From IMG/VR virus record IMGVR_UViG_3300001484_000215: a stretch of 29,683 nucleotides of DNA; one strand, given 5' to 3'. Shown piece after piece: positions 1 through 29,683 of the stretch (the stretch's first letter is position 1; every line of letters starts with the position of its first letter). The position numbers were made by a program, and so were the translations under genes. Source of the DNA: a virus. Under the pieces are notes generated by a model. It was not told the origin of the DNA, did not search any database, and saw only the letters and a list, made by a program, of their open reading frames with translations.

Positions 1-357
1 CGGCGCGCAGACACCCGCATTTGCAAAACAAAAAGTGGTTTAAAATTTTTTTGATTAGATTTTTATATATTTCTTTTTTTGGTCAGAAATGAATAAGTAG
101 CTTTTAAAATTTTTAATATATAATTGTAAAAACAAAAAATCATTTGAATGGGGGAATTGTCTTTGATAGCATTACTTTAGAATTATTCTTTATAGGATAT
201 ATTTATATGTATTATTTTTATAGCTTTAGCAGTAAAAAGTCTAATTTCTTTTCTTGATTGGGCTTATGATTATATAAGAAAAATTTTTAACTTTAAACAT
301 TATAAAATTAATGAAAAAGAAGAATTACATCGTCGCCTTCAAAAAGGAAGCGAGGTA

Positions 358-642
358 ATGTCAACATTAGAAAAAAATCAAAAAGCTACAGATGAAGTAT
401 TGGATAAATTATCTACAAAAATAGATATGCTTATAGATTCTGATAAAGATGCAATAAAATCTTTTATAACAGAAAAACATCATTATTATTGTTATAAGGT
501 GGGCTATATTGATGATTTTAGTCTGGATTGTATTGAAAAAAGATTCAAACATTATTCAGATTAGGGCGGCAATTCTTTTATAGAAAATTTTATGAAAGAA
601 TTGAGAGCATTACCAATTCGTTAGCCTACATAGAGATAGTAA
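358..642 (+). CDS. Hypothetical small protein (~94 aa). It reads through TAG codons at 562, 622, 631 and 637 to a TAA stop at 640-642. An upstream in-frame extension from ATG 148 would add one transmembrane helix (possible holin-like protein).
   Basis: ATG 358 is preceded by AAGGAAG/GAGG. The listed ORF 358..564 ends at TAG, and the frame continues to TAA at 640-642. An upstream in-frame ATG at 148 adds the hydrophobic segment DIFICIIFIALAVKSLISFLDW. Confidence 0.45.
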
Positions 643-668
643 TAAAATAAAAAAGGAGATAAAAGGAT

Positions 669-27160: not shown

Positions 27161-27189
27161 TTGATTTTTTATAATTTTTTTGTTATAAT
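27161..27189 (+). promoter_or_regulatory. Second, near-identical tandem promoter P2 (TTGATT-N17-TGtTATAAT), ~35 nt upstream of the ATG.
   Basis: TTGATT at 27161-27166, a 17-nt spacer and TGTTATAAT at 27181-27189. The RBS GAAAGG and ATG 27222 follow. Confidence 0.65.
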
Positions 27190-27221
27190 ATAATTATAAA
27201 TAAAAAAGAAAGGTAAAAAAT

Positions 27222-29683
27222 ATGGGGAGATATGATAATGAAAATTGGAACGAACAGCCTCAAATGAATCGACAGCGAGACCTTGTCCTTTCCACTAATG
27301 AATTTTGTTTTCTACAGTCTAAAACCAATGGTGCAATTAAGACCTATTCTGGTCCCATTACCATGACAATTTCTGCTCAGGAATCTTTGGTCGTATTTAA
27401 TCCCAAAACAAAGAAATTTGAAGAGACTCAAGATTTTGAAAAAGCGAAGCAGCTTTTTATTTCAGCTCCCGAGGGATGGTATGTGGTATTAAAGAATCCT
27501 GCTACTGATAATTCTCATCCAGAATCTGCAAAAGCAGTTAATAGTCCAGAGCTTGAAATTGGTCGTAAGATTAATATTGCAGGTCCGGTTTCTTTCTCTT
27601 TGTTTCCTGGTCAAATGACAAGAGTAATTCGAGGACATAGACTTCGTTCAAACCAGTATCTACTAGCACGAGTATATGATGCGGAAGCTGCACGAAAAGG
27701 AATGGCTACAGCTACTATTGTCAACGCAGAAGGTAAAGAAGTCGTTGCAAAATCTGAAGAATATTTTGTAGGTCAGATGATTGTTATTAAAGGCACAGAG
27801 GTATCTTTCTACATTCCGCCAACAGGTATTGAAGTTATTCCTAATGATTTTAATAATACTTATGTACGAGATGCAGTTACTCTTGAAAGGTTGGAATATG
27901 CCATTCTAAAAGATGAAGACGGTGAAAAAAGATATATCCATGGTCCTGCGGTGGTTTTTCCTAAACCTACAGAAACTTTTGTATCTGTACCTAATAAAGA
28001 TAGCGTAATTTTCCGTGCCTTGGAACTGTCTCCGATTAGTGGTATTTATGTAAAAGTTATTGCCGCATATGATGAAGAAAAAGATGGAGAAAAAATTCAT
28101 CATCCAATTGGAGAAGAGCTTTTTATTACTGGAAATGACCAGATGATTTATTATCCTCGTCCAGAGCATGCAATGATTCAATATGATGGAAAATATATGC
28201 ATCATGCTATTGCAATTCCTGAAGGCGAAGGAAGATATATTTTAAATAGACTTTCTGGAGAGATTTCTACAATTCGCGGTCCTCAGATGTATTTACCAGA
28301 TCCCCGCACCGAAGTTGTAGTAAGAAGAAAACTTACTACAAAAGAATGCGAATTAATGTATCCTGGAAATAAAGAAGTATTGGCTTATAACACCAATCTT
28401 TCTGAAAAAACTATGGAGAAGCTGGCAAAGAAAGGATTATCTAATCCTACCGCAGACATTTTGAATAATACTTATTCTACTGCAAATCAAGATAGTACAT
28501 TAGCAATTTTTGAAGCTAATGCTAATATCTCTAGAGGAGTAAGTTATACAAAGCCTAGAACCATTACTCTTGATACCAAATATGAAGGTGTCGTAGCTAT
28601 TGATGTATGGACCGGATATGCAATCAATGTCGTTTCCAAATCTGGAAACAGAGAAGTTATTGTAGGTCCCGCCACAAGACTTTTAGATTATGATGAAACA
28701 GTAGAAGCTCTAGAAATGCCGAATATGCCAAATGGAACTGCATTCTTGCAGATTGAAAATAATAAAATTACTGATATTATCTCTGCACAAACCGCAGATT
28801 TCGTAGATGTTAGAATTAATTTAAATTATTGCATTAATTTTTTGAAAGATTATAAAAATTATTGGTTTGCAGTTAATAATTATACTAAATATCTGTGTGA
28901 TAATATGCAGTCTCTTATTAAGAGGGAAATTAAGAAATATAATATTAAAGATTTTTACGCCAATTCTACAGAAATTATTAGAAATATTGTGCTTGATATT
29001 GATTCATCTAAAGATGATAACAAAAAGATTCCTTTTGGAAGATTTTTCAAAATTAATGGTATGTTAATTAATGATGTAGATATTATTCATGTAGCTGTAG
29101 AAGCTAACATTGCAGCTATCCTTGAAAAAAATCAAACAGAATTAATTCAGAAAAGTATTGAATTAGCTAATGCAGAAGAGCGTTTGCGTGTTTCGACCAG
29201 CCTCTCAGAAATTACAAAGCAGGAAGCTGAATTGGCAAATGCAACAACATTGCATACTCTTGCTCTTGCACAGGCAGAAACTGAAGAAAAAATGCGTAAT
29301 GAAGAGCTAATTAATGCTAAAACTCGCGAGGCGGAAAAGGCTAAAAATCAAGCAGAAAATGACCTTCAGAGCATTTTAGATGAAATTCATAATGCAAAGC
29401 TTGCTCGTTTAAGAGAGGCTCGCAAGGCTGACTTGGATTATGAAAGAGCTCAGGCTGAGATTGAAAAAGCTAAACAGGATGCATATGCTGCTAGTGTCAG
29501 AGAAATTATGAATGCTATTTCTCCTGAACTGATTGCCGCAATTAGCGCAAGTTCTAAGGCGGATCTCTTAAAGGAAGGTATGGCTAGTATGGCTCCTTAT
29601 GCATTGGCAAATGGAGAGTCTGTTGCCGACACTGTAAACAAACTTCTTAGAGGAACTTCTCTTGAAGAGGTTATTAATAATAA
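27222..29683 (+). CDS. Major vault protein (MVP)-like protein, 5'-complete and 3'-partial (>820 aa, runs off the window); no TAG codons.
   Basis: One uninterrupted frame from ATG 27222 to the window end. It is absent from the ORF track only because no stop is reached. Three segments align with the MVP shoulder and cap-helix region: ITDIISAQTADFVDVRINLNYCINF (cf. MVP [25 protein letters not shown]); IKDFYANSTEIIRNIV (cf. FDDFHKNSARIIRTAV); DLDYERAQAEIEKAKQ...ISPELIAAIS (cf. ELVYARAQLELEVSKAQ...IGPSTIRDLA). Confidence 0.75.
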   Translation, partial: MGRYDNENWNEQPQMNRQRDLVLSTNEFCFLQSKTNGAIKTYSGPITMTISAQESLVVFNPKTKKFEETQDFEKAKQLFISAPEGWYVVLKNPATDNSHPESAKAVNSPELEIGRKINIAGPVSFSLFPGQMTRVIRGHRLRSNQYLLARVYDAEAARKGMATATIVNAEGKEVVAKSEEYFVGQMIVIKGTEVSFYIPPTGIEVIPNDFNNTYVRDAVTLERLEYAILKDEDGEKRYIHGPAVVFPKPTETFVSVPNKDSVIFRALELSPISGIYVKVIAAYDEEKDGEKIHHPIGEELFITGNDQMIYYPRPEHAMIQYDGKYMHHAIAIPEGEGRYILNRLSGEISTIRGPQMYLPDPRTEVVVRRKLTTKECELMYPGNKEVLAYNTNLSEKTMEKLAKKGLSNPTADILNNTYSTANQDSTLAIFEANANISRGVSYTKPRTITLDTKYEGVVAIDVWTGYAINVVSKSGNREVIVGPATRLLDYDETVEALEMPNMPNGTAFLQIENNKITDIISAQTADFVDVRINLNYCINFLKDYKNYWFAVNNYTKYLCDNMQSLIKREIKKYNIKDFYANSTEIIRNIVLDIDSSKDDNKKIPFGRFFKINGMLINDVDIIHVAVEANIAAILEKNQTELIQKSIELANAEERLRVSTSLSEITKQEAELANATTLHTLALAQAETEEKMRNEELINAKTREAEKAKNQAENDLQSILDEIHNAKLARLREARKADLDYERAQAEIEKAKQDAYAASVREIMNAISPELIAAISASSKADLLKEGMASMAPYALANGESVADTVNKLLRGTSLEEVINN

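Follow-up and report, generated by a model that had tools for sequence, protein, structure and literature searches.

Amber codons read as sense, with glutamate as their most likely meaning, in the tail module of a Bacillota phage

We analysed a stretch of 29,683 nt (29.5 % G+C) from IMG/VR virus record IMGVR_UViG_3300001484_000215, hereafter the window, in which most genes are interrupted by the amber codon TAG. Located by an exact protein match, the window occupies positions 18157-47839 of ENA ERZ12302817 NODE_450, a 65,195-bp contig that was rebuilt whole by outward walking. It carries a tape measure gene (Pfam PhageMin_Tail), RuvC-like and major-vault-protein-like genes and genes for large proteins of the baseplate and fibres, and is flanked on the contig by an array of 28 tRNA genes, a holin, a GH25/SH3 endolysin, gyrase, ligase, RNase H and RNA ligase. 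Megablast of the window against 50,697 phage records returned no match. Distant similarity links it to Phass-1 and to other annotated phages, of Enterococcus, Enterocloster and Thomasclavelia, relationships that point to a Bacillota host. Weak further evidence on the host comes from related contigs (L217-L222; L numbers denote fetched loci), which belong to genome bins labelled Bacilli, Clostridia and Erysipelotrichaceae; one of these contigs, at 139.6 kb, is probably an entire phage genome. We regard the window as the tail, baseplate and tape measure module of a tailed Bacillota phage of ~130 kb from the animal gut or rumen, in which comparison with relatives indicates that TAG most likely encodes glutamate (Glu).

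Nineteen gene models cover 96 % of the window and hold 9,529 codons, among them 136 in-frame TAG and not a single in-frame TAA or TGA. This bears out an earlier note, made from the sequence alone, in its claim that the long frames are broken only by TAG. The same note had placed all 18 gene ends that it resolved on TAA, and all 18 ends within the window are indeed TAA; the nineteenth gene leaves the window and is also TAA-terminated on the contig. The uniformity is local, as TGA terminates several real genes on the contig outside the window; TAG serves as the end of none of the genes on the 65-kb contig. The longest frame delimited by TAA and TGA runs for 2,931 codons on the minus strand (18235-27030) through 63 TAG (62 after the ATG), in agreement with the tape measure frame of about 2,900 codons and dozens of TAG described previously, and further frames obtained by ignoring TAG reach 1,308, 957, 846 and 675 codons. 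Under the standard code, the longest open frame is an 826-codon TAG-free run through g16, the vault-like gene, that reaches the window end, followed by one of 480 codons, and the longest TAA/TGA-free frame in 200 shuffles of the window was 203 codons. Coding density from greedy calling of open reading frames was 56.7 % with code 11 and 57.5 % with code 4, and rose to 94.8 % once TAG was read as sense. The region is therefore shattered by standard-code callers, as had been predicted, and the gain is far above the 5-10 % used as the criterion for recoded phages when a stop codon is read as sense. Reassignment of TGA (code 4 or 25) finds no in-frame TGA in the window to act on, and code 30, in which TAA and TAG both encode Glu, is at odds with the lack of in-frame TAA in genes that end on TAA in 18 of 18 cases. 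That the code is unchanged, and that the TAG codons are pseudogene lesions, assembly errors or sites of occasional programmed readthrough, has a negligible probability and nothing in its favour: 136 TAG stand against no TAA or TGA in frame, the same gene structures recur in independent ENA, Logan and NCBI assemblies (as near-identical copies in the latter two) and in more than 20 related IMG/VR contigs, and a dedicated, conserved tRNA(CUA) is present. We conclude that TAG has been reassigned from stop to sense, and that translation passes through it in 15 of the 19 window genes.

The first TAG-bearing gene of the late module is g01 (148..642, + strand; 164 aa, 6 TAG, TAA end), the product of which has an N-terminal membrane helix; the three contig genes directly 5' of it have no TAG. 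Three of its TAG lie among its last seven codons and the final one adjoins the TAA stop, so that the C-terminus is set by the code in force. Downstream, g02 (669..3536, +; 955 aa, 12 TAG, TAA end) encodes a baseplate or tail protein of unknown family with 768 homologues, and the public collection already stores the 955-residue product. The baseplate protein of g03 (3538..5550, +; 670 aa, 14 TAG) has a weak match to DUF5048 (3e-5) and counterparts at 60 related IMG/VR loci, and this gene served as our main marker for gathering relatives. Next come g04 (5571..6248, +; 225 aa, 3 TAG, TAA end), of unknown function, and g05 (6266..8782, +; 838 aa, 6 TAG), a tail fibre-like protein with a C-terminal SGNH/GDSL-like domain, for which the match to Lipase_GDSL_2 is weak (1e-3) and under the Pfam cut-off. 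The short g06 (8810..9160, +; 116 aa, 1 TAG, TAA end) is again of unknown function.

The strand then changes. A repeat-containing fibre-like protein is encoded by g07 (9235..10167, - strand; 310 aa, 2 TAG), the internal repeat HA(S/T)..TTYGVATS.AYGHVKIVDNY being visible in the translation, and g08 (10252..10566, -; 104 aa, 1 TAG) encodes a product with the metallopeptidase motif HEITH and a weak SprT-like match (1e-4). The five small genes g09-g13 (10569..13149, -) contain 0, 1, 0, 0 and 1 TAG; their G+C fractions range from 0.26 (g12) to 0.42, with 0.31-0.42 in the other four, and are thus mostly above that of the window. One of them, g10, has a weak match (1e-4) to BclA_C, the C-terminal domain of the exosporium protein BclA. 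The five genes may have been acquired recently, or their expression may follow other rules. On the plus strand, g13b (13348..13836; 162 aa, 7 TAG) is a RuvC-like resolvase gene labelled from motifs read by eye (MRILSLDLS ... DDEADA) and not from a family search; the collection also calls a 162-residue gene here. It is followed on the minus strand by g13c (13851..14051; 66 aa, 3 TAG, TAA end), of unknown function, and by g14 (14058..17951; 1,297 aa, 16 TAG), which encodes a large tail or baseplate-associated protein. Between g14 and the tape measure gene lies g14b (18031..18192, -; 53 aa, 1 TAG), which the collection calls from a later start as 51 aa. The tape measure gene itself, g15 (18235..26961, -; 2,908 aa), carries 62 TAG and no TAA or TGA, and its Pfam PhageMin_Tail assignment was made on the 2,908-residue product in the collection. 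The last gene, g16 (27222..29683, +), runs off the window end and is 824 aa in full (L151:545-3019 on the contig), with no TAG in the 820 codons inside the window, a match to MVP_shoulder (7e-22) and CAG commoner than CAA. Homologues of this major-vault-protein-like gene number in the thousands in metagenomes and huge phages, and a Band 7/SPFH gene (L151:3278-4213) lies two genes 3' of it, past a 63-residue gene.

Elsewhere on the contig, in-frame TAG is found only in the endolysin gene (2) and three other called genes, namely a GIY-YIG gene (9), a gene for a 264-residue protein (3) and one for a choline-binding-repeat protein (1). The replication genes have none: gyrase, ligase, RNase H and RNA ligase are TAG-free, as are the DUF2828 gene and the neighbouring vault-like and Band 7 genes. 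This map agrees with the late-gene timing model proposed for recoded phages (10.1101/2021.08.26.457843). The GIY-YIG endonuclease gene (contig 62044-62961; L151:17211-18128) lies with its nine TAG amid the TAG-free replication genes. Compared with I-TevI, it has one TAG opposite Glu63 and one opposite Lys80, an observation that is anecdotal. A catalytic Glu encoded by TAG was considered and rejected, since one endolysin TAG stands opposite Ala, Val or Leu in solved GH25 enzymes and the catalytic Glu of the GIY-YIG protein uses a normal codon.

Relatives were gathered from IMG/VR through g03 (60 loci), an upstream DUF2828 gene (80 loci) and an alignment of g14 (62 loci, compared with one locus when g14 was used as a single protein query). 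Their genomes measure 110-155 kb, and their homologous genes occur in three coding states: standard, with TGA in frame and with TAG in frame. Gene order varies; in the standard-code relatives L014-L020 the g14 homologue and g03 share a strand, with g14 the more upstream of the two, whereas in the window g14 and the tape measure gene lie downstream of g03 on the opposite strand. For the alignment test, TAG and TGA were both translated as X and the window genes were compared with the TAA-delimited frames of every locus; because TAG was scored as X, the alignments are unbiased. Residues were tallied from relatives that do not use TAG as sense (standard or TGA-recoded), at ungapped positions with at least four identities in the ten flanking residues. 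The public collection already reads TAG through but stores glutamine (Gln) at every TAG, and alignment to its products would therefore falsely confirm Gln.

A first pass over 48 positions yielded 398 aligned cells, in which Glu was the most frequent residue (177), followed by Asp (34), Lys (27) and Gln (16). The expanded set covered 84 of the 136 TAG positions, with Glu as the majority residue at 32 and Lys, Asp and Gln at eight each, and the columns conserved to at least 80 % at a window TAG comprised nine of Glu and two of Gln. Log-likelihoods over the 84 positions, computed from empirical substitution rows of the same alignments, were -199.5 for Glu, -240.0 for Gln, -249.5 for Lys and -251.1 for Asp, and in 2,000 bootstrap replicates Glu was best in 100 % at flank filters of 3 to 6 and in 99.4 % at filter 7. 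Individual columns illustrate this. In g03, TAG codons 189, 613 and 158 stood opposite Glu in 24/24, 18/21 and 8/8 relatives; codon 139 of g01 did so in 17 of 20 standard-code relatives; codons 100, 173 and 1064 of g14 in 5/5, 5/5 and 6/6; and codons 1979 and 2546 of the tape measure gene in 11/12 and 13/17. Glu was also the majority residue at three of the four covered TAG positions of g13b. Close relatives allowed a reciprocal test at the codon level. Relatives that themselves show Glu-type TAG (Glu-type relatives) had GAA opposite 42 % of window TAG, TAG opposite 20 %, GAG opposite 5.5 % and CAA opposite 3.7 %, and their own TAG stood opposite window GAG (9.3 %), GAA (7.1 %) and CAA (1.2 %). 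The TAG of Gln-type relatives, by comparison, stood opposite window CAA in 15 % and GAA in 2.4 %. By alignment, then, the TAG positions correspond to Glu in the relatives and not to the Gln of code 15, which the earlier note had favoured; its impression that TAG falls in Gln-like contexts failed the residue test that it had itself proposed.

Controls run through the same pipeline returned the expected residues. In TGA-recoded relatives, TGA was read as Trp (57 % weighted; log-likelihood -196 vs -365 for Phe). Run on every TAG-recoded relative, the pipeline divided them cleanly into two sets. Among those of another branch, L027 gave 33 Gln and 6 Glu over 76 positions, with similar results for L028, L036, L043-46, L048, L055, L060 and L061, whilst the Glu-type relatives L003 and L012 gave 18 Glu and no Gln over 42 positions, and 17 Glu and no Gln, respectively. 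Recovery of Trp for TGA and of Gln for TAG in the other branch indicates that the pipeline separates Glu from Gln. Phass-1 was tried as a published Gln control, but only nine positions passed the filter, which is too few. A neighbour-joining tree built on g03 united the window and 21 other Glu-type contigs in one clade, the sister of which contained standard-code and Gln-type members, with the TGA clade outside; Gln-type recoding appeared in at least three places.

Several observations weigh against reading TAG as Glu. At tape measure codons 2349 and 2416, which are TAG, standard-code relatives have Gln in 15/17 and 15/16 cases, and when this gene is scored by itself Glu leads Gln by little (-85.8 vs -90.1); the tape measure was the main example in the earlier note, which explains the Gln-like impression. 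The Glu at TAG columns is also less conserved than at ordinary Glu codons (33 % vs 51 % weighted), one endolysin TAG stands, as mentioned above, opposite Ala, Val or Leu, and the two readings could not be told apart by their bulk Glu and Gln content relative to standard-code orthologues.

A suppressor tRNA with a CUA anticodon had been predicted and is present on the same contig. Neither a tRNA search nor an Rfam scan of the window itself gave a match; ARAGORN located a tRNA(CUA) at L150:7412-7485, ~10.7 kb upstream of window position 1 and within the 28-tRNA array, and the Rfam tRNA model scored it at 56 bits. It directly follows a run of tRNA-Glu(UUC), tRNA-Glu(CUC) and tRNA-Met. A tRNA(CUA) was found in 10 of the 10 closest Glu-type TAG-recoded relatives with enough upstream sequence, one per relative within the fetched tRNA region. 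We aligned ten suppressors (that of the source contig and nine from relatives), and the cloverleaf showed compensatory changes in 15 of 20 pairs. Two relatives have a tmRNA inside the tRNA array (L075:8425-8702 and L126:8859-9209), and in a close Glu-type relative a tRNA with the TAA-reading anticodon UUA lies beside the tRNA(CUA) (L026:2395-2469 and L074:6561-6635, which are one IMG/VR contig).

The acceptor stem and D-loop of these suppressors differ from those of tRNA-Gln. Pair 1-72 was G-C or C-G in nine of the ten Glu-type sequences (G-C in the source contig), G-U in one and U-A in none, whereas phage tRNA-Gln genes had U-A or A-U here in 52 of 53, with the register anchored on the T arm. 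The suppressor D-loop, GAGTGGTTTAA, is two bases longer than the tRNA-Gln loop, AAGTGGTAA, and equal in length to that of the phage tRNA-Glu(UUC), AAGTGGTCTAA, all three sequences having been read by eye. The discriminator base is C or A. The suppressor thus lacks the weak U-A or A-U first pair that marks tRNA-Gln and that would be expected of a code 15 decoder. Its affinity to tRNA-Glu is less distinct, and this counts against the Glu assignment: G2-U71, present in 8 of the 10 suppressors, in combination with C3-G70 occurs in 6/26 tRNA-Glu, 4/13 tRNA-Asp, 15/63 tRNA-Ser and 2/53 tRNA-Gln, and is thus common to Ser, Glu and Asp tRNAs, and overall similarity does not place the suppressor clearly nearest to tRNA-Glu, the closest single neighbour being a tRNA-Asp (0.74). 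A nearest-neighbour comparison with 750 phage tRNAs returned no isotype, with the best matches to Asp, Trp, Met and Cys at 0.70-0.75 identity. In the three Gln-type relatives with a fetched tRNA region, the suppressor is another one, of 99 nt, with the acceptor UGGGGAU/AUCCCCA (U1-A72) and a long variable arm, directly 5' of tRNA-Gln(CUG) and tRNA-Gln(UUG) (L104:1483-1581, L106:6604-6702 and L117:6139-6237). ARAGORN wrongly assigns it a four-base anticodon unless introns are allowed.

The earlier note had also suggested a search for release-factor or synthetase genes on the contig. The precomputed Pfam lists of called contig genes contained no synthetase or release factor, and tblastn with the E. 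coli glutamyl-tRNA synthetase (GluRS) found no homologue of GluRS or of the glutaminyl enzyme in the 4.2 Mb of fetched loci, which include the whole contig. In our proposed mechanism, the GluRS of the host would charge the phage tRNA(CUA) with Glu. The CUA anticodon keeps U35 alone of the anticodon bases used by studied GluRS enzymes, which speaks against such charging, and this step is therefore one that we infer. A Bacillota GluRS, which also charges tRNA-Gln, would tolerate variation at anticodon position 36, because it accepts both tRNA-Glu and tRNA-Gln. Bacillota make Gln-tRNA indirectly through Glu-tRNA, by means of a non-discriminating GluRS and the amidotransferase GatCAB (PMC2811023), and bacterial GatCAB amidates Glu-tRNA only where the first pair is U1-A72 rather than G1-C72 and where additional D-loop bases are absent (PMC2811023). 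The Glu on the suppressor would remain Glu and escape amidation, since the U1-A72 pair needed by GatCAB is lacking. A G1-C72 suppressor would in this way keep Glu and a U1-A72 suppressor would end as Gln, so that the difference at pair 1-72, together with GatCAB, could give rise to both amber meanings within one phage family. Early genes would be readable under the standard code of the host, whilst late genes would be translatable only after the suppressor tRNA accumulates, and the code would therefore act as a timer for virion and lysis proteins.

How well does the Glu assignment stand against other amino acids? Glutamine, the meaning of TAG in the standard phage code 15, has precedent on its side as the sole amber reassignment reported for phages in the literature searched, and it gains from the two conserved-Gln tape measure columns that carry TAG and from trailing Glu only slightly when that gene is scored by itself. 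We nevertheless consider it quite unlikely. Over the 84 positions it falls well below Glu in log-likelihood, with Glu best in every bootstrap replicate at most filters, conserved Glu columns outnumber conserved Gln columns by nine to two, and among close relatives TAG swaps with GAA and GAG and not with CAA and CAG. The same pipeline does yield Gln for another branch of the family, and the first pair of the suppressor is not the U-A or A-U that 52 of 53 tRNA-Gln genes have. A mixture of the two, in which a Glu-charged suppressor is partly converted to Gln or two suppressors coexist so that TAG stands for both Glu and Gln, is unlikely. It would accommodate the few TAG positions on conserved Gln, the Gln pathway of Bacillota does pass via Glu-tRNA (PMC2811023), and the contig represents half of the expected ~130-kb genome, which leaves room for a second tRNA(CUA). 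Against it, Gln makes up 9.4 % of residues at TAG columns, much as it does at ordinary Glu codons (7.2 %), and the relatives have one tRNA(CUA) each in the fetched tRNA region. The few Gln columns need no second decoder, because a single CAG to TAG transition, with the conservative change from Gln to Glu that it brings, would suffice; tape measure codons 2349 and 2416 may be such transitions or may be a sign of mixed decoding.

That TAG stands instead for a residue which substitutes much as Glu does (Asp or Lys, for example), or for a non-standard amino acid, is in our assessment very improbable. Asp and Lys each hold the majority at 8 of the 84 positions, and the suppressor has a tRNA-Asp as its closest single neighbour (0.74 identity), yet both residues lie ~50 log-likelihood units below Glu (Lys -249.5, Asp -251.1), and the discriminator base is C or A and not the G73 typical of tRNA-Asp. 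As for a non-standard residue, the precomputed Pfam lists of contig genes contain no pyrrolysine-type genes. Glu therefore remains the reading that we favour for TAG in the window.

Recoding of TAG in late genes by means of a phage suppressor tRNA is already well described, and what appears new here, on the alignments and the tRNA sequences, is the Glu meaning. The TAG-recoded Lak, crAss-like and gemstone-clade phages (10.1101/2021.08.26.457843) resemble the window phage in having TAG in late structural and lysis genes alongside early and replication genes compatible with the standard code, and they likewise have a phage-encoded tRNA(CUA), a presumed standard-code host and a proposed role in the timing of late expression. 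They differ in that their TAG is assigned to Gln, whereas the TAG of the window phage aligns with Glu and its suppressor is without tRNA-Gln acceptor features. For crAss-like phages, TAG recoding has been validated by proteomics (PMC9523058). Among the gemstone groups, the 'Agate' phages of Borges et al. (10.1101/2021.08.26.457843) have genomes of ~127-154 kb, come from the gut of cattle and pigs, have Firmicutes hosts and include codes 11, 4 and 15 in one clade. The window family is similar in size, animal-gut source, Bacillota signal and mixture of standard, TGA and TAG codes, but the Agate paper treats all TAG recoding as Gln, unlike the Glu reading of the window.

A distant relative is Phass-1 (OQ749652; PMC10607447), of the proposed Phassvirus group, the g03 counterpart of which is 34 % identical over 99 % of the length. 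As in the window phage, its genome of ~136 kb has TAG in virion genes and encodes tRNA(CUA) genes; in its large terminase subunit (TerL) its authors report Gln where TAG occurs, along with a suppressor of the Gln type (PMC10607447). Suppressor isotypes reported for phages are Gln, Trp, Ile and Tyr. In the literature that we searched, the coverage of which was partial, there was no report of TAG as Glu in phages, and UAG as Glu was met in ciliates only. To our knowledge, no NCBI translation table combines TAG as Glu with TAA and TGA as stops. The ciliate nuclear codes with UAG as Glu are the peritrich code 30 and that of a ciliate with UAA as Lys and UAG as Glu (10.1101/2022.12.16.520718). They are eukaryotic nuclear codes without an evolutionary link to the window code, and code 30 reads TAA, too, as Glu, the codon on which window genes chiefly terminate. 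The indirect Gln-tRNA pathway of Bacillota (PMC2811023), in which one synthetase loads Glu on both tRNAs and the first acceptor pair decides on conversion, is a host pathway and not a recoding system, and we infer that the phage suppressor makes use of it.

Should TAG be Glu, 136 residues of the window are wrong in databases, as are the corresponding residues in at least 21 related contigs, because gene callers and databases translate all TAG-recoded phages with table 15. Proteomic searches could miss the error: the mass difference between Glu and Gln equals that of deamidation (0.984 Da), and searches that allow deamidated Gln would therefore hide it. Tentatively, and with rather more doubt than attaches to the Glu assignment itself, we suggest that a single Bacillota phage family may use four codes (standard, TGA as Trp, TAG as Gln and TAG as Glu), the meaning of amber being set by the first acceptor pair and D-loop of the suppressor through the host amidotransferase. 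The first-base-pair hypothesis is directly testable by tRNA swaps, and a single family sampling four codes would provide a natural system for the study of code change. If true, this would be the first amber-to-glutamate code outside eukaryotes, with a simple molecular switch between two codes, and phages would differ in what a recoded stop codon stands for.

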